The notes under the pieces: generated by a model | Database searches by the model: none | The model's input: the letters and a program-made list of their open reading frames with translations, nothing else | Told to the model about the DNA's origin: nothing | Assembly (NCBI GenBank): GCA_963559065.1 | Contig: CAUWIY010000010.1 | Location: 5,527-69,526, forward strand | DNA length: 64,000 nt | Direction: 5' to 3' | From: an uncultured Clostridia bacterium | GTDB lineage: Bacteria > Bacillota > Clostridia > TANB77 > CAG-508 | Made by a program: the position numbers and the translations under genes | Shown here: one piece after another, positions 1,557 to 55,342 of the stretch | Layout of the letters: each line of letters begins with the position of its first letter | Position numbering within the stretch: position 1 is the first letter of the stretch

Positions 1557-1566
1557 TCATAGGTGT

Positions 1567-1603
1567 GTCATAGGGGACAGTCAAGATATGTACCATATCT
1601 TGT
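1567..1603. repeat. GGGGACAG-box repeat copy plus adjacent 9-bp-stem hairpin
   Basis: GTCATAGGGGACAGTC (1567-1582), then caagatatg-tac-catatcttg. The core is shared with copies at 2306-2325, 13948-13964, 36661-36676 and 36769-36780. Confidence 0.6.
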
Positions 1604-1819
1604 GTCAAAAAAAGTCGAAAACAGTTGGTTTAAAAATGATTTTAAATAAACTTAAAAAAACTAATTCAAAATTTAAGATTAAAAGTTAAATTACAAAAAT
1701 TGAACTACAAAAATTAAATTGCAAAACTTAAGTTGCAAAAGCTAACTTAGAAGATAAAGATATAAAATTATATCTATAAAAATCAATTTATAAAAAGTAT
1801 GATAAAAGGAGGGTTGAAA

Positions 1820-5300: not shown

Positions 5301-5542
5301 TAAGAGAGATATTATCTAAAGTTCAAAATATGAGAAAAGATAGAGGATTTGAAGTATTAGATAGAATTAATTTGTATGTATCTGGAAATGAAAATTTAGA
5401 GAATGTAATTAGAAAAAATGCAGAACTAATTAAACATGATACTTTAGCATTAGATATAATTTATGGAACAGATAGAAGTGAATATGTTGAAACAAATATA
5501 AATGGAGAAAACTTAAATATCGATGTTGAAGTTATAAAATAA
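2366..5542 (+). CDS. ileS: Isoleucine--tRNA ligase, type 2 (eukaryote-like form)
   Basis: HIGH (PHVGHIE), KMSKS (KMSKSKGN), the HYPFEN motif and about 1058 aa. Start moved to ATG 2366 (AAGGAAGG SD 7 nt upstream). The extra N-terminal residues in the ORF track come from translating the repeat. Confidence 0.95.
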
Positions 5543-5556
5543 ACTTTAAAGTATTT

Positions 5557-7032: not shown

Positions 7033-7926
7033 ATGGAAGAAAATAAATTAGTAATTCAAAGTGAATTAACTATCGAAGAGATAAAAAACTTAATATATAC
7101 AATAAGAGGTAAACAGGTTATGCTAGATAGTGATGTGGCAAATATATACCATTGTGAGACAAAATATGTAAATCGTGTGGTAAAAAGAAATATAGAACGA
7201 TTTCCAGAAGAATTTTGTTTTCAATTGAATAAAAATGAGTTTGAATCTTTAAGGTGCCAATTTGTCACCTTAAACGAAAATGGAAGAGGACAACATAGAA
7301 AATATTTACCTTATGTATTTACTGAACAAGGTATAGCAATGTTATCAGCTTTGTTAAAAAGTCGTATTGCAGTAAGTGTCAGTGTAAATATTATGAAAGC
7401 ATTTATTGAAATGAGAAAATTTTTAATGATTAATGGACAAGTATTTGAAAGACTAACTAGTGTAGAACATAAATTACTAGAGCATGATAAAAAATTTGAC
7501 GAAGTATTTAATCAGCTTCAGTTAGAAGAAAATATCAAACAGAGAATATTTTTTGATGGTCAAATATATGAGGCATATAGCTTGATTATAGATATCATAA
7601 AAAGAGCAAATAATAAGATTTTGATTATAGATAATTATATTGATGATAGTATTTTGAAAATGTTAGCTAAAAAGAAAAACAATGTGGAAATAGTTATTCT
7701 AACATCAAACAAAAGCAATATTGAAAATTTAGATATTAAAAAATTTAATAAAGAATATCCTATTTTAAAAGTTGCTAAAACTAATAAATTCCATGATAGA
7801 TTTATAGTAATAGATAATAAAGAAATGTATCATTTAGGAGCTTCGATAAAAGATTTGGGCAAAAAATGCTTTGGAATTAATAAGATAGAAGATATGGAAA
7901 TTATAGAAAAAATTATTAACTTATGA
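7033..7926 (+). CDS. ORF6N (KilA-N-related) domain protein with a degenerate HKD/PLD-like C-terminal module
   Basis: N-terminus IRGKQVMLDSDVANIYHCETKYVNRVVKRNIERFPEEFCFQL is the ORF6N signature. A coiled-coil middle follows. C-terminus reads KFHDRFIVIDNKEMYHLGASIKDLGKK. Confidence 0.7.
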   Translation: MEENKLVIQSELTIEEIKNLIYTIRGKQVMLDSDVANIYHCETKYVNRVVKRNIERFPEEFCFQLNKNEFESLRCQFVTLNENGRGQHRKYLPYVFTEQGIAMLSALLKSRIAVSVSVNIMKAFIEMRKFLMINGQVFERLTSVEHKLLEHDKKFDEVFNQLQLEENIKQRIFFDGQIYEAYSLIIDIIKRANNKILIIDNYIDDSILKMLAKKKNNVEIVILTSNKSNIENLDIKKFNKEYPILKVAKTNKFHDRFIVIDNKEMYHLGASIKDLGKKCFGINKIEDMEIIEKIINL

Positions 7927-26394: not shown

Positions 26395-26475
26395 AACAAA
26401 AAACGACAAAAAATAATAAAAATAGACAAGAAAAATGAAACAAAATGTAACTGACCCCAAAGGATCCAAAGGAGG
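26395..26475. repeat. Repeat module in the PBP 5' region (paralogue of 2263-2345)
   Basis: Identical 17-mer AACAAAAAACGACAAAA (26395-26411), then an A-rich stretch, then ACTGACCCCAAAGGATCC abutting the SD. Confidence 0.6.
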
Positions 26476-26480
26476 TTTTT

Positions 26481-28520
26481 ATGAAAAATAAGAAAGTAAT
26501 AATTGGAATTGTAGTAGGTATTGTAATTTTGATGGCTGTAATATTAGGTGTAGTTGTTATTAATAATAAAAATGCGGGAAAACCAGAGGATTTTTTAATT
26601 TCATATGTTGCTTTAATAAATGAACAAAAATATGATGAACTTTATAATTGTATTTCAGAGGAATCTAAGACAAAAATTTCACAAGAGGATTTTGTAAAAA
26701 GAAATAAAAATATATATGAAGGTATAGATGCGTATGATATTAAAATAAATGTTTCTGAAACGAAAAAAGAAAAAGGAGTTTATAAAATATCATATAATGA
26801 AAGTATGTCAACTGCTGCTGGGACAATCTCTTTTTCAAATACAGCAAAAATAGTAAAAGAAAATAAAGAATATAAAATAGATTGGTCATCTAGTATGATA
26901 TTTCCACAGCTTAGAGATAGTGACAAAGTAAGAATTTCTAGTATTGAGTCAAAAAGAGGAGAAATATTAGATAGAAATGGAAAGAAATTAGCTGAAAATG
27001 GAACAATATTGACAGTGGGTGTTGTTCCAGGTAAATTATCAGAAAATAAAGAGACAAGCATTGCAAGAATAGCAGAGTTAACAGGAGTGTCAGTAGAATA
27101 TATAAATAATCAACTTTCAGCTTCTTATGTAAAAGATGATACATTTGTACCAATAAAGAAAATATCAGCGACAAACACAGATTTAAGAGCACAATTATTA
27201 CAAGTTCCTGGAGTGATGATAAATAATACAGAAGGAAGAGTATATCCTTTAGGAGAAGAAGCAGCACATTTAATAGGATATGTGCAAAAAGTGAATGCAG
27301 ATGATTTAAAAGAACAAGAAGGAAAAGGATATAATTCAAACAGTATAATTGGAAAGTCAGGATTAGAGAAGGCTTACGAAGATACTTTAAGAGGTGTTGA
27401 TGGTAAAGAAATTTATATTGTAGATGAAAAAGGTAATAGATTAACAACTTTAGCAAAACAAGATAAACAAGATGGAAAAGATGTAAAACTTACAATAGAT
27501 AGTGGCATTCAAAAGAGGTTATATGATGAACTAAAAAATGATAAGGGATTTTTTGTAGTTATGAATCCAAAGACAGGAGAACTACTAGCAACAGTAAGTA
27601 CTCCATCATACAATTCAAATGATTTTGTTTTAGGATTAACAAATGATAAATGGAATGAATTAAATAGTAATGCTAGTAAACCATTATATAATAGATTTTT
27701 GCAAAGCTATTGTCCAGGTTCAACATTTAAACCAATTACAGCAGCAATTGGTTTATCAAGCGGAAAATTAACAAGAGAAACAACATTTAATTATTCAGGC
27801 TTAAAATGGCAAAAAAGTCCTAGTTGGGGAGATATTTATATAACAACATTAACAACATACAATGGACCTAAGAATATAAGAAATGCACTTATTCATTCTG
27901 ATAATATCTTTTTTGCACAAGCTGCTATGCAAATTGGAAGTACAGCTTTTTGTGAAGGATTAGATAAATTAGGATTTAATGAACAAATAAATGAAAAAAT
28001 TAAATTTCCATTAACATTAAAAAAATCTCAATATTCAAATTCAGATAAAATAGCAAATGAAAAGAAATTGGCTGATTCTGGTTATGGACAAGGAGATATT
28101 TTGGTAAATCCAATTCATATGGCATCAGTATATTCAGCATTTGCTAATAATGGAAATATGATAAAACCATACATAGAATATAAAGAAAATGCACAAGCAG
28201 AAATTTTTAAAGAAAATGTATTTAGTGCAGAAATAGCAAATACAATAAAGGATGATTTAATACAAGTTGTAGAAAATCCAGGAGGAACAGCAACTGATAT
28301 GAAAGTACCAGGAGTAACAATAGCAGGAAAAACAGGAACAGCAGAGCTAAAAACATCACAAAATGATACAGAAGGTGGACTATTAGGTTGGTTTGACTGC
28401 TTTACAATAAATAATCTATCTGGAAATGATATGTTAATTATAAGTATGGTAGAAAATACTCAAACTAATGGAAATGGTGGAAGTCATTATTTAATTAAAA
28501 AAATTAAAACACTATTTTAA
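26481..28520 (+). CDS. Class B penicillin-binding protein with MecA-type NTF2-like N-terminal domain
   Basis: N-terminal TM, NTF2-like region, transpeptidase motifs STFK (PGSTFKP), SDN (HSDNIFF), KTGT (AGKTGTAEL). Confidence 0.9.
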   Translation: MKNKKVIIGIVVGIVILMAVILGVVVINNKNAGKPEDFLISYVALINEQKYDELYNCISEESKTKISQEDFVKRNKNIYEGIDAYDIKINVSETKKEKGVYKISYNESMSTAAGTISFSNTAKIVKENKEYKIDWSSSMIFPQLRDSDKVRISSIESKRGEILDRNGKKLAENGTILTVGVVPGKLSENKETSIARIAELTGVSVEYINNQLSASYVKDDTFVPIKKISATNTDLRAQLLQVPGVMINNTEGRVYPLGEEAAHLIGYVQKVNADDLKEQEGKGYNSNSIIGKSGLEKAYEDTLRGVDGKEIYIVDEKGNRLTTLAKQDKQDGKDVKLTIDSGIQKRLYDELKNDKGFFVVMNPKTGELLATVSTPSYNSNDFVLGLTNDKWNELNSNASKPLYNRFLQSYCPGSTFKPITAAIGLSSGKLTRETTFNYSGLKWQKSPSWGDIYITTLTTYNGPKNIRNALIHSDNIFFAQAAMQIGSTAFCEGLDKLGFNEQINEKIKFPLTLKKSQYSNSDKIANEKKLADSGYGQGDILVNPIHMASVYSAFANNGNMIKPYIEYKENAQAEIFKENVFSAEIANTIKDDLIQVVENPGGTATDMKVPGVTIAGKTGTAELKTSQNDTEGGLLGWFDCFTINNLSGNDMLIISMVENTQTNGNGGSHYLIKKIKTLF

Positions 28521-34992: not shown

Positions 34993-35298
34993 ATGTATTA
35001 TACATATATGCTAAGATGTGCAGATAATTCAATATATACAGGAATGACAAATAATATAGAAAACAGATTAAATGAACATATTTCAAAAGGAAAGAATGGA
35101 GCAAAATATACAAAGTCTCATGATGTAGTAAAACTGGAAAAAGTCTGGAAAAGTAGAGATAAATCATTAGCTTGTAAATTAGAATATCAAATAAAAAATC
35201 TTACAAAACAGCAAAAAGAAAATTTGATAAAAGGTGAAAGGTTATCTACATATTTAAAGGGTAAAGTAGACTGTAGAAGATATAGTAAGGTTCTATGA
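34993..35298 (+). CDS. GIY-YIG nuclease family protein (UPF0213/YazA-like)
   Basis: YYTYMLRCADNSIYTGMTNNIENRLNEH...GAKYT. Confidence 0.8.
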   Translation: MYYTYMLRCADNSIYTGMTNNIENRLNEHISKGKNGAKYTKSHDVVKLEKVWKSRDKSLACKLEYQIKNLTKQQKENLIKGERLSTYLKGKVDCRRYSKVL

Positions 35299-35314
35299 AA
35301 GTAAGGAGGAAATT

Positions 35315-38300
35315 ATGCCAAAGTGGACAGAGGAACAAAAACAAGCAATATATGAAAAGGGGTCAAATTTATTAGTTGCAGCAGCAGCAGGAAGTGGAAA
35401 AACAGCTGTTTTAGTAGAAAGAATAATTAATAAAGTAATGAATGAAAATATTGATATAGATAGATTATTGGTTGTGACTTTTACAAATGCAGCAGCTGCT
35501 GAAATGAGAGAAAGAGTATTAGATGCAATTTATAAGAAATTGGAAGAAGAACCAGAAAATGAAAAGTTACAAAAACAACTTATGTTATTAAATATGGCAA
35601 GTATTTGTACAATAGATTCATTTTGTTTAGAAATTGTAAAAAATAATTTTTATGAATTGGAAAATGTATCTCCAAATTTTAGAATTGCAGATACACCGGA
35701 AATTGAATTATTAAAACAAGAATTATTAGATGAATTATTTGAAAAAAAATATGAAGAAGAAAATGAAGATTTTGTGAAACTTGTTAGCACTTATACAAAT
35801 TATAGAGATGATACTCCTCTAAAAGATTTAATATTAAAAATATATAATTATATAAGCTCGAGTCCCTATCCAAAAGAATGGTTACATGAAAAGATAGAAA
35901 TGTTTAATTTAAAAGACAAAATTAATAGGGATTTTAGCGAAACTTTGTGGGGAAAAATTTTGTTGCAAGATTTAAAAGAAGAATTAGAAGATGACATAAC
36001 AGTTCTAAAAGGAGTACAAGAAGACTTAAGTTTTGACGAAGAATTAGAACCATTTAGACAAATAGTAGAATCAGATGTAAAACAATTGCAAACACTAAAA
36101 TCTAATTTGGACAATTGGGACAATGCGTATCAAATATCACAAAATATAAAATTTATGACATGGTCAAGAAAAAAAGTAGAATCAGAAATAAAAGATGAAG
36201 CAAAAAAAATAAGAGATAGTGTAAAAGACAAATTTGGAAAAAAAGTAAATAAAATATTAATATCAAATTCTAATCAAGCAAATCAAGACATATATGACAT
36301 GTATGATATATTGAAAAAATTAGAAAATCTAATATTAGAATTTGACAACATATTCAATACAAAAAAAAGAGAAAAAAACATAGTAGACTTTACTGACATA
36401 GAACACTTTGCACTAGAAATATTATTAAAAAAAGATGAAACAGGAAAAATTCAAAAAACAGAAGTAGCAAAAAGATACACAGAAAAATTTGAAGAAATAG
36501 CAATAGACGAATATCAGGACAGCAACTTAGTACAAGAATACATATTAAGTTCAATCTCGAGAGGGAACAACCAATTTATGGTAGGAGACGTAAAACAAAG
36601 CATTTACAGATTCAGACAAGCAATGCCAAAACTCTTCCTAGACAAATACTCAAAATTCTGGTCAGTGGGGACAGACGTAGTTTGTTCCAAAGATAAGTCG
36701 GAATTTGTCGAGGAATATGAAAAAATACAAGAAGAGACAAAAAGTGACAAAAATGATAGAACAAAACTAGACTGTCCCCATTGCCCAGGAAGGAAAATAC
36801 AGCTGTATAAAAATTTTAGGAGTAGGGCTAATGTACTGGATTTTACGAATTTTGTTTTTCAGGATATTATGAGCGAAGTGCTTGGAGAGGTTGAATATAA
36901 TAAAAATGAGTATTTGAATTTTGGGGCTGAGGATTATAAATGTATTAATCAAAATTTTAAAACTGAAATTGATATTATTAATACAAAGGCAGAACTGCAA
37001 GATGATGATAATAAAAATACAATTGAGGATATTAATAGTATTAATGGTATTGATAGTATTGATGGAGGGGCTTCTATAGATGCAGATGATTTTGAACATT
37101 TAGAAGAGATTGAGCTTGAAGCAAAATATGTTGCAAATAGAATACAAGAGCTGATAAAGACAAATTATCAGGTTTATGACCGAAAAAGTGGTGAGTTTAG
37201 AAATATCAAATATAGAGATATTGCAATTCTTTTAAGGTCAACTAAGGAAAAAGCAAGTATCTATGAACAAGAACTTATGAACTTAGAGATTCCAGTATTT
37301 TCAGATAGTACACAAGAATATTTGGATTCAATAGAAATTCAAACTATAATGAGTGTATTAAAAATAATTGATAATCCAATACAAGATATTCCATTAGTAA
37401 CAGTTATGAGGTCACCAATTGGTGGATTTACAGATAATGATTTAATAGAAATTAGATTAGTGGATAAACAAGATGATTTTTATCATTGTTTATTAAAATC
37501 TAAAATTAATACTACTGATAAATTAAGAATGAAAATAACAAAATTTTTGGATAATTTAGATAATTGGAGAGAAGAACAGGAATATTTAGCTTTGGATGAA
37601 TTGATTTGGAAAATTTATACAGATACAGGATATTATCATTATGTTGGACTAATGCCAAATGGGAATATAAGACAAGCTAATTTGAAAATGTTATTTGAAA
37701 GAGCAAAAGGATATGAAACAGCTAGCTTTAAGGGATTGTATAATTTTATTCAGTTTATAGAAAAATTAAAAATTAATTCAGGGGATTTAGGCTCTGCCAA
37801 AATAATTGGAGAAAATGATGATGTTGTTAGAATAATGAGTATTCACAAAAGTAAAGGTCTAGAATTTCCAATTGTGTTTTTGGTAAACAGTAATAAACAA
37901 TGTAATGAACAAGAAACAAAGTTGGATTCAGTGTTATTACATCAAGATATTGGAATTGGTGTGAAATACATTGATTATTATGCACAAATAAAATATGATA
38001 CATTGACTAGAGAAGCTATTAAGAATAAATTAAAAAATGAGAACTTGTCAGAAGAGATGAGAATTCTATATGTTGCACTTACACGAGCAAAAGAAAAATT
38101 GATAATAACAGGAACATCTAAGGATTTTGAAAATAAATTGGAGAAAATGGAAAAACAAATAGAAATATATCCTAAGGAAAAACAAAAAATTAATCCAATT
38201 TTAATAAAAAAATATAAATCGTTTTTAGATTGGATTTTATTAGTATATCTTTATGAAAAAGAAAAAGCTAACAAATTGGCAGAAATAAAAGAAATAAATC

Positions 38301-39166
38301 CAAAGGACATAATTGAAAAAGAAGCAAAAAAAGAAGAACAATCAGATTTAGAAAATATAATGCAAGAATTAGAAAATGCAAAAGACAATTTTACAGAAAA
38401 TGAATATGAAAGACTAAAAAGTAAAATTGAGTATGAGTATGAACATCAAATCGATATTAAGCTACCTACAAAAATATCAGTAACACAAATAAAACAAATA
38501 CAACAAGAAAAAAATAAACTAAAGTCGCAAAAAAATGATGCAAATTTAATAATTGATAATCAAAAATTGATAGATTGCAATGAACAAACAAACATTAAAG
38601 ATATAGATATAACTTTCGAAAAACCAAAATTTTTACAAACAGAAGAAAAAGAAATAAGTGCAGCAGAAAAAGGAACTTTAGTGCATTTATGCTTACAAAA
38701 ACTAGATATAAAAGAACGATATGATATAGATAAAATAAAATTATTGATAAATGAATTAGAAAATAATGAAATAATAACTTCAAATGAAGCAAAAACGATA
38801 AATCCTTATAAAATATTAGAATTTACAAAATCAAAGTTATGGGAAATGATGCAAAAATCTAAAGAAATTTATAGAGAAAAGCCTTTTTATATTAACATCC
38901 CAGCACAGGAAATTTATGAAGAAGAGACGGAACAAAATATACTTGTACAAGGAATAATTGATTTATATTTTATAAATGAGGATGATGATATAATTTTAGT
39001 TGATTATAAAACAGATTATGTAGAGAATAATCAAGAAAACAAGTTAATAGAAAAATACGAAAAACAGCTAGAAATTTATAAAAGAGCATTAGAACAAACA
39101 TATAACAAAAAAGTGAAAAAAATTTATATATATTCTGTTTATATGTCTAAAACCATTGAAATTTAG
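35315..39166 (+). CDS. addA: ATP-dependent helicase/nuclease subunit A (AddA)
   Basis: UvrD-type motifs (AAAGSGKTAVL, DEYQDSN, VGDVKQSIYRFR, KNFRSR, SIHKSKGLEFP, YVALTRAK). C-terminal RecB nuclease (GIIDLYF...VDYKTD). Confidence 0.9.
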   Translation: MPKWTEEQKQAIYEKGSNLLVAAAAGSGKTAVLVERIINKVMNENIDIDRLLVVTFTNAAAAEMRERVLDAIYKKLEEEPENEKLQKQLMLLNMASICTIDSFCLEIVKNNFYELENVSPNFRIADTPEIELLKQELLDELFEKKYEEENEDFVKLVSTYTNYRDDTPLKDLILKIYNYISSSPYPKEWLHEKIEMFNLKDKINRDFSETLWGKILLQDLKEELEDDITVLKGVQEDLSFDEELEPFRQIVESDVKQLQTLKSNLDNWDNAYQISQNIKFMTWSRKKVESEIKDEAKKIRDSVKDKFGKKVNKILISNSNQANQDIYDMYDILKKLENLILEFDNIFNTKKREKNIVDFTDIEHFALEILLKKDETGKIQKTEVAKRYTEKFEEIAIDEYQDSNLVQEYILSSISRGNNQFMVGDVKQSIYRFRQAMPKLFLDKYSKFWSVGTDVVCSKDKSEFVEEYEKIQEETKSDKNDRTKLDCPHCPGRKIQLYKNFRSRANVLDFTNFVFQDIMSEVLGEVEYNKNEYLNFGAEDYKCINQNFKTEIDIINTKAELQDDDNKNTIEDINSINGIDSIDGGASIDADDFEHLEEIELEAKYVANRIQELIKTNYQVYDRKSGEFRNIKYRDIAILLRSTKEKASIYEQELMNLEIPVFSDSTQEYLDSIEIQTIMSVLKIIDNPIQDIPLVTVMRSPIGGFTDNDLIEIRLVDKQDDFYHCLLKSKINTTDKLRMKITKFLDNLDNWREEQEYLALDELIWKIYTDTGYYHYVGLMPNGNIRQANLKMLFERAKGYETASFKGLYNFIQFIEKLKINSGDLGSAKIIGENDDVVRIMSIHKSKGLEFPIVFLVNSNKQCNEQETKLDSVLLHQDIGIGVKYIDYYAQIKYDTLTREAIKNKLKNENLSEEMRILYVALTRAKEKLIITGTSKDFENKLEKMEKQIEIYPKEKQKINPILIKKYKSFLDWILLVYLYEKEKANKLAEIKEINPKDIIEKEAKKEEQSDLENIMQELENAKDNFTENEYERLKSKIEYEYEHQIDIKLPTKISVTQIKQIQQEKNKLKSQKNDANLIIDNQKLIDCNEQTNIKDIDITFEKPKFLQTEEKEISAAEKGTLVHLCLQKLDIKERYDIDKIKLLINELENNEIITSNEAKTINPYKILEFTKSKLWEMMQKSKEIYREKPFYINIPAQEIYEEETEQNILVQGIIDLYFINEDDDIILVDYKTDYVENNQENKLIEKYEKQLEIYKRALEQTYNKKVKKIYIYSVYMSKTIEI
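36666..36780. mobile_element. Inverted-repeat-bounded GGGGACAG-box element inserted in frame within addA (MITE/RPE-like)
   Basis: Left end TGGGGACAGACGTAGTTT (36666-36683) and right end AAACTAGACTGTCCCCA (36764-36780) are inverted repeats with one indel. The enclosed codons (WSVGTDVV...DCPHCPG) have no counterpart in the Bacillus AddA sequence as I recall it. Confidence 0.6.
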
Positions 39167-55215: not shown

Positions 55216-55261
55216 TTGACAAATGACACTGTGTCATATAAAATATATGACACAGTGTCAT
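55216..55261 (+). promoter_or_regulatory. Promoter with two 15-bp palindromic operators (TetR autoregulation candidate)
   Basis: TTGACA (55216-55221), TAAAAT (55239-55244). ATGACACTGTGTCAT (55223-55237) and ATGACACAGTGTCAT (55247-55261) are each a perfect 7-1-7 palindrome. Confidence 0.65.
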
Positions 55262-55342
55262 TTTATGTGTGAAAACATAAATTAAATAAGACAATTAAAT
55301 TATTATTTGGTAAAAAAATAATTAGAGTAAGGAGATGAGAAT

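Follow-up and report, generated by a model that had tools for sequence, protein, structure and literature searches.

A segment of addA in uncultured low-GC gut Clostridia is very likely an in-frame REPIN-type element

Repetitive extragenic palindromic (REP) sequences, the bacterial interspersed mosaic elements (BIMEs) and inverted hairpin-forming doublets (REPINs) related to them, and the REP-associated tyrosine transposases (RAYTs, or TnpA-REP) have been described in E. coli and Pseudomonas (PMC3116915, PMC3337134, PMC6006769). We analyzed a 64-kb stretch of the uncultured Clostridia contig CAUWIY010000010.1 (hereafter, the window), in which a 129-nt segment of addA, a gene for a break-repair helicase-nuclease, very likely belongs to a repeat family of this kind. 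The family resembles the described system in its ~30-nt imperfect palindromes between genes (mostly after 3′ ends in that system), its inverted doublets that form one long hairpin (~110–130 nt there), its Y1 HUH gene flanked by inverted copies, its vertical inheritance within a clade, and the co-variation of its arms. The REP-flanked arrangement has been described for RAYTs and atypical REP classes without the GT[AG]G tag have been reported (both PMC6006769), and RAYT relatives are on record in Clostridia (PMC5581495). The Clostridia family differs in that it lacks the GT[AG]G/CGTC foot, its transposase carries an additional C-terminal domain and scores under the NCBIfam cutoff for RAYTs, its hosts are uncultured low-GC Clostridia with the core also present in high-GC Atopobiaceae (a different phylum), and its addA copy lies in coding sequence. 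It thereby reveals an untagged REP class paired with a C-terminally extended Y1 transposase.

REPs within genes are themselves not a new phenomenon. Di Nocera et al. (2013; PMC3733652) described in-frame intragenic REPs, often dimers, of 20–30 or more residues, over-represented in replication and repair genes (uvrA, uvrB, UvrD/Rep helicases, and Xanthomonas recB, the last lying outside the Firmicutes); a single gene can be the sole coding REP host of a species. The terms “Firmicutes” and “Clostridi” are absent from the full text of that paper. The addA element, likewise an in-frame REP dimer in a repair gene, adds uncultured gut Clostridia of low GC content to the hosts in which a RecB-class repair enzyme carries such an insertion. 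Their examples are GTAG- or CGTC-tagged, whereas the one described here is untagged, has addA as its host, and can be followed across a clade, which gives an unusually complete natural history of one insert: an ancestral doublet, repeated arm loss, decay, co-variation of the arms, and a pairing-driven switch from Cys to Arg.

Two other element types invite comparison. The original prediction for this locus likened the segment to the Rickettsia palindromic elements (RPEs), of which RPE-4 and RPE-6 have been equated with CGTC REPs (PMC3733652). The likeness holds for a palindromic repeat lying in frame in a conserved gene and adding a tolerated peptide; it is a likeness of behavior. It fails for the idea of an anonymous RPE-like repeat, as the family is of REP/REPIN type with a Y1 (RAYT-like) transposase, so that a candidate mobilizing enzyme can be named. 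RPEs also occupy many genes of one genome, in contrast to addA and a comFC-like N-terminus here. Miniature inverted-repeat transposable elements (MITEs, such as Correia and bcr1) are similarly small, have terminal inverted repeats and lack coding capacity of their own, whereas each terminus of the REP doublet is a hairpin in its own right, as Y1 single-strand transposition would lead one to expect. No direct repeats flanking the doublets were noticed on reading the sequences, a reading that did not include a systematic search for target-site duplications; the only associated enzyme is Y1, and no DDE parent was found.

The addA insert and its family membership

In the window, addA occupies positions 35315–39166 (+) and, judged from its open reading frame (ORF) and translation, encodes a 1283-residue protein with a UvrD-type helicase and a PD-(D/E)XK nuclease. 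The Pfam domains UvrD-helicase, UvrD_C, and PDDEXK_1 are recorded for a 100% identical protein (P0001). Comparison with Bacillus subtilis AddA (PDB 3U44_A; E = 2.6e-122) aligns residues 3–452 with residues 10–465 and residues 491–556 with residues 468–531 of the latter. Between them, residues 453–490 (n = 38) stand in place of two B. subtilis residues, a net gain of ~36 that agrees with the 35–40 extra codons estimated originally. The insertion site falls between helicase motifs III and IV. An AlphaFold2 model of residues 1–700 has pLDDT <50 over residues 424–599, and is therefore uninformative on this loop.

The element itself, a REPIN-like doublet of two inverted REP-derived arms and a spacer, spans 36659–36787 (+) and is supported by a covariance model (see below) and by its hairpin. 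It is 129 nt (43 codons) long, starts with the first base of codon 449, and encodes residues 449–491 with the peptide WSVGTDVVCSKDKSEFVEEYEKIQEETKSDKNDRTKLDCPHCP; with a start on a codon boundary and an open frame throughout, the insertion is in frame, as had been claimed. The left arm (36658–36687, +) is a degenerate REP that reads WSVGTDVVC, compared to a consensus of ETVGTVQKCL in relatives, and is identified by the inverted repeat and by alignment to relatives’ arms and to a half-REPIN consensus. The right arm (36759–36788, +) is a degenerate REP in inverted orientation that reads RTKLDCPHCP (consensus ETNLDCPNCL), with a partial match to the singlet model at 36762–36783. The two 30-nt arms are 77% complementary with 71 nt between them. 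The inverted repeat noticed earlier is thus real and longer than the quoted 18-mer and 17-mer, which differ by one mismatch plus one indel and not, as stated, by an indel alone. The spacer (36688–36758, +) retains TTTGTCGAG at 36704–36712, its partner GACAAA/GTGACAAA lies at 36735–36753, and the two form an inner stem in the predicted fold; a GTCGAA…TTCGAC layout is common to the addA spacer, intergenic doublets, and the flanks of the RAYT-like genes. When 36655–36792 is folded as RNA, the result is a single long hairpin of −46.8 kcal/mol, compared to a mean of −22.6 for shuffled sequences (z = −7.7; 0 of 200 shuffles equal it).

Proof of family membership comes from related genomes. A covariance model (R1) was built solely from 12 intergenic doublets of relatives, and never from addA. 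Its sole match in the 64 kb is 36659–36787 (51.4 bits, E = 7.7e-11), and it scores 77–106 bits on most of the doublet-bearing AddA inserts of relatives, 45 on one reduced to its arms (L008), and 31 on a degenerate one (L215). The prediction that addA holds one copy of a palindromic repeat family known from between genes is therefore borne out, as the same element occurs between genes in relatives. A second full element of ~130 nt was not found in the window. The two short motifs on which the prediction had been based are not what proves it. Both occur as described: the 12-mer AGACTGTCCCCA recurs at 2306–2317 (0.04 expected), and the 10-mer reported at 1573–1582, GGGGACAG, is present four times (1573+, 2309−, 36667+, and 36772−) vs. 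0.35 expected, a count that 0 of 100 shuffles reach. A model of the singlet REP (R2), however, has no significant match in the window (best E = 0.4 and 0.88), single arms being sub-significant, so the motifs are marginal evidence on their own. Taken together, we consider it very likely that the addA segment is a REPIN-type element, consisting of two inverted REP copies and a spacer, in frame in addA.

The repeat family and its transposase in related genomes

The consensus of the family is a ~30-nt palindrome, TGAGACA-N3-GGGACAGTCC-N5-TGTCTCA, of which the AddA arms in sister species are copies. In relatives it occurs as intergenic singlets and as inverted doublets of 104–131 nt. An exact-pattern scan using one genome per species matched at least 120 stretches, which fall in low-GC Clostridia metagenome-assembled genomes and in high-GC Atopobiaceae. 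Clostridia copies lie after stop codons or immediately upstream of ribosome-binding sites, and 54 intergenic singlets aligned from low-GC loci have a mean column identity of 85%. The 12 loci with intergenic inverted doublets (104–131 nt) carry GTCGAA…TTCGAC in their spacers, and the RNAalifold consensus of these doublets is a 31-bp stem; an additional doublet is located at 5445–5547 of locus L005. Based on an unbiased sample of AddA-centered loci, REP density is ~3–4 copies per 140 kb, or ~1 per 40 kb. A literature string search with the core 10-mers returned eukaryotic primer sequences only. Phage origin was considered and rejected, because the pattern is nearly absent from viral contigs (2 of 2.9 million).

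In relatives, the AddA insert arms and these intergenic palindromes agree at nearly every base. Translated in frame 0, the intergenic doublets read ETVGTVQFCL…ETKLDCPNCL, which is the signature of the AddA insert. Fifteen of their 72 frames are stop-free, seven of the 12 lengths are multiples of three, and the modal length is 117 nt. For annotation, this is a warning that the AddA motif “ETVGTVQKCL…DCPNCL” mirrors a DNA repeat and not a protein domain.

Clustering the ORFs that adjoin palindromes yielded one recurrent mobile-element family, a Y1 transposase. A Y1_Tnp protein is encoded 70–170 nt from the palindrome in five loci (L038, L053, L080, L085, and L087). In L038, L053, and L080, inverted REPs with inner motifs facing inward lie on both sides of the gene; L087, whose sequence ends within the gene, has a REP 70 nt upstream of it. 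Against PF01797 (cutoff 23) the protein reaches 31.9 and 39.3 bits, its HUH (NHAHIL) and Y..NP motifs are readable, and its best NCBIfam match is the REP-associated tyrosine transposase (NF047646; 67 bits, E = 1e-18). The additional C-terminal domain of this RAYT-like protein is ~100 aa long.

Several side observations concern the family as a whole. In the Atopobiaceae loci (L015–L130), the REP core is a perfect 27-nt palindrome, (A)TGAGACAAAGGGACAGTCCCTTTGTCTCA(T), with many copies in the high-GC genera Olsenella, Tractidigestivibacter, and Parolsenella. In one of these loci (L087, 7182–8000) the palindrome adjoins a Y1/RAYT-like gene whose product is 35–38% identical to that of Clostridia; it is uncommon for a REP sequence to be conserved between phyla. 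An intact REP follows a cation-ATPase C-terminal gene in both L005 (20878–20915) and L211 (12322–12359), whose AddA proteins are 85% identical, which indicates that individual intergenic REPs persist at orthologous sites. Next to the RAYT-like gene, the right-hand REP falls within the 5′ end of a comFC-like ORF (L080, 5221–5913; L038, ~7495–7560; L053, ~2800–2850) that encodes a Pribosyltran domain and a double zinc ribbon. There the REP reads MRQIRTVP.VS in a second open phase, so that it may be translated like the one in addA.

History of the insert and competing explanations

The best non-self AddA homologs are 62–68% identical and come from uncultured gut Clostridia; among homologs, the segment between motifs III and IV varies from 30 to 70 residues, and the reading frame is intact in 120 of 120. 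Long forms carry ETVGTVQKCL…SETNLDCPNCL, short forms only ETFGTVQNCL, and one form has both ends without the middle. The codons for GTV (GGGACAGTC) are the reverse complement of those for DCP (GACTGTCCC), which means that the inverted repeat is conserved as DNA. Sub-clades that bear doublets are only ~80% identical in AddA, yet their spacers share homology. Singlet and decayed forms nest among doublet forms; P0101, for example, is 91–92% identical to the doublet-bearing P0012 and P0066. A 32-aa form, “KPVENDTNCIGRK”, was considered as the native loop and rejected, since it nests in doublet-bearing clades; by hand comparison, 22 of 30 positions of its DNA agree in register with the REP consensus.

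Outgroup AddA proteins (49–63% identity) have a loop of 30–32 residues without a REP, and 738 kb of DNA flanking their genes is almost REP-free. A metagenome scan for AddA relatives recovered mostly insert-less outgroups, representing the ancestral state, and one new doublet (L131). Because distant orthologs and B. subtilis lack the insert, it is lineage-specific, as the original prediction had proposed to check by aligning orthologs. The simplest reading is that a doublet was inserted once, in the ancestor of a low-GC clade of uncultured gut Clostridia, and that an arm plus the spacer was repeatedly deleted later, with decay in addition. The insertion in addA is ancient and vertically inherited, not recent, and the window’s copy has lost its REP sequence identity. 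Within the window’s own species, addA is invariant in five contigs (the window and L001–L004). In P0124, which is in the same 90% cluster as the window’s AddA, part of the right arm is duplicated in tandem (LDCPHRPKPDCPYRPCC) and the protein is 10 residues longer, suggesting that the insert is still an indel hotspot.

We propose that one REP doublet entered addA in the ancestor of the clade, probably by RAYT-mediated single-strand transposition, and landed in the loop between motifs III and IV. Since the phase of the doublet (GAG-ACA…) is stop-free and its length a multiple of three, it would have been translated as a tolerated loop extension of ~40 residues. What then kept the arms complementary may have been quasipalindrome correction, with the hairpin as template, or conversion from other REPs, or selection.

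Certain observations weigh against this reading of the insert. The 54-copy alignment contains no GTAG or CGTC foot, its flanks being T|GAGACA…TGTCTC|A, and the transposase scores under the curated NCBIfam cutoff for RAYTs (67 vs. 80 bits). Among low-GC palindrome loci, AddA (L012) is the only match deep in a coding sequence, the others being at gene ends, plus the comFC-like N-terminus; with addA nearly the only coding host, multi-gene spread of the RPE kind is not shown. Neither a RAYT gene nor an intact REP was found in the window’s own 64 kb. Given that the density in relatives is only ~1 per 40 kb, so that ~1.5 copies are expected per 64 kb, this does not prove the family extinct, and we reject a claim of its extinction in the window’s genome. 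Translation of the insert appears likely from its open frame, not from peptides. A metatranscriptome contig (36468–36748) extends from addA across the left arm and over most of the spacer, with no joint that skips the insert; the depth of such RNA contigs is low, they may include DNA, and the right arm is left uncovered.

Patterns of substitution bear on how the arms have been kept. In 11 AddA doublets, 86.9% of arm cells pair vs. 80.8 ± 0.9% in shuffles, and 14 of 32 arm pairs have changed on both sides, compared to 5.7 ± 1.7 when shuffled (0 of 500 reach the observed value) and 3–10 in slid controls. Two lineages have perfect 32/32 arms, one of them with a different inner sequence in both arms, and in L211 the central base has changed in both arms, turning a Cys into an Arg. 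Relatives’ arms are 0.82 identical, vs. 0.64 at flanking four-fold degenerate sites; between the window and the others, arms are 0.55–0.66 and four-fold sites 0.51–0.66 identical. Arms in relatives therefore evolve more slowly than four-fold sites, whereas those of the window change at the synonymous level, from which we infer that REP identity has been kept in the DNA of relatives and lost in the window’s lineage. As the window’s arms have diverged yet still pair, this copy is probably an immobile relic in which a strong hairpin remains.

These data are also what might be expected if the hairpin were kept as a working nucleic-acid element in addA, with its REPIN origin merely its history; candidates are a structure in the mRNA, such as an RNase III-type target, through which translation or decay is tuned, and a DNA hairpin on which RAYT acts. 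Consistent with this, arms co-vary, some lineages have perfect 32-bp stems, the arms in relatives exceed four-fold degenerate sites in conservation, and the window’s copy, although without REP identity, keeps its z-score of −7.7 and has changed its outer stem from GAGA to CTGG in both arms. However, many lineages have deleted or decayed one arm with the AddA frame intact, and hairpin-templated correction or conversion by REPs gives the same co-variation in the absence of selection. We regard such a role as unlikely. Slightly less likely again is the more specific proposal that the addA REPIN is a maintained hairpin (up to 32 perfect bp in some species) that regulates a helicase-nuclease of double-strand-break repair or serves as a RAYT target, and is not tolerated junk. 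If true, REP elements would be functionally linked to genome-maintenance genes, which would help to explain the published, unexplained excess of REPs in repair genes.

Selection could instead act on the peptide, with the insert a protein module such as a Cys-containing metal-binding or interaction loop and the inverted repeat incidental, given that C…CPxC is conserved in many relatives. The conserved residues, however, are those encoded by invariant REP bases, with the variable ones on N3 and N5, and the Cys of DCP is replaced by Arg in several lineages via a paired change in both arms. In addition, the whole module has been deleted in close relatives, and the untranslated copies between genes would specify this peptide as well. 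In comparison to a REPIN-type insertion, a selected module is quite improbable.

An ordinary lineage-specific expansion of the loop, in which slippage or the growth of low-complexity sequence left an inverted repeat by chance, has precedent in that four outgroups (P0076, P0085, P0089, and P0090) have long, N/E/K-rich, REP-free loops at this site. It is very hard to reconcile with the match at E = 7.7e-11 to a model that never saw addA, with the fold (z = −7.7), or with relatives’ arms that are near-identical to intergenic palindromes. Removal of the segment after transcription or translation, as an intron or intein absent from mature AddA, is an idea invited by a structured insert in a conserved gene with nothing direct in its favor, and can practically be dismissed: RNA contigs have no skipping joint, 43 codons are far below intein size, and only one tRNA in the window reaches an Rfam gathering score.

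Degenerate copies and neighboring features in the window

To locate other traces of the family, the half-REPIN consensus was scored on 100-nt tiles of the window. The top tiles were 2251(−), 26401(−), and 1551(+), with the addA arms next. The best tile (score 45) contains an inverted degenerate REP relic at 2262–2320 (−), directly upstream of the ileS ribosome-binding site; this relic is also the best R2 match in the window (E = 0.4), and has the exact 12-mer in common with the right arm in addA. The relic at 1560–1625 (+), among the top three tiles, consists of GGGGACAGTC and then GTCGAAAA, right after a T-box terminator. The copies predicted at 1573 and 2306 are thus present, though as degenerate relics that are singly marginal. 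A probable third relic at 26420–26470 (−) lies directly upstream of the ribosome-binding site of the ORF at 26481–28520, and represents the second-best tile (score 35); it is weak alone.

The first two relics are inverted relative to each other and bracket a DUF1653 ORF (1799–2074) between the T-box leader and ileS. In this region (1236–2360), the leader (1236–1532) is a sub-threshold match (53 bits, E = 1.7e-10) with a terminator, and the ~830 nt that separate it from ileS look like an insertion between the two.

In this clade addB does not adjoin addA (window 34993–39166, and L001–L010); upstream of addA there are a small GIY-YIG ORF and a MacB-type ABC transporter. Four ORFs of at least 600 aa were scanned against Pfam and none is AddB-like; the three others of this size are ileS, a penicillin-binding protein, and a MacB-type permease. 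Finally, the palindrome ATGACAC-N-GTGTCAT occurs twice at 55221–55263, 24 nt apart and overlapping a TTGACA promoter-like site; it is probably an operator pair, unrelated to REP.

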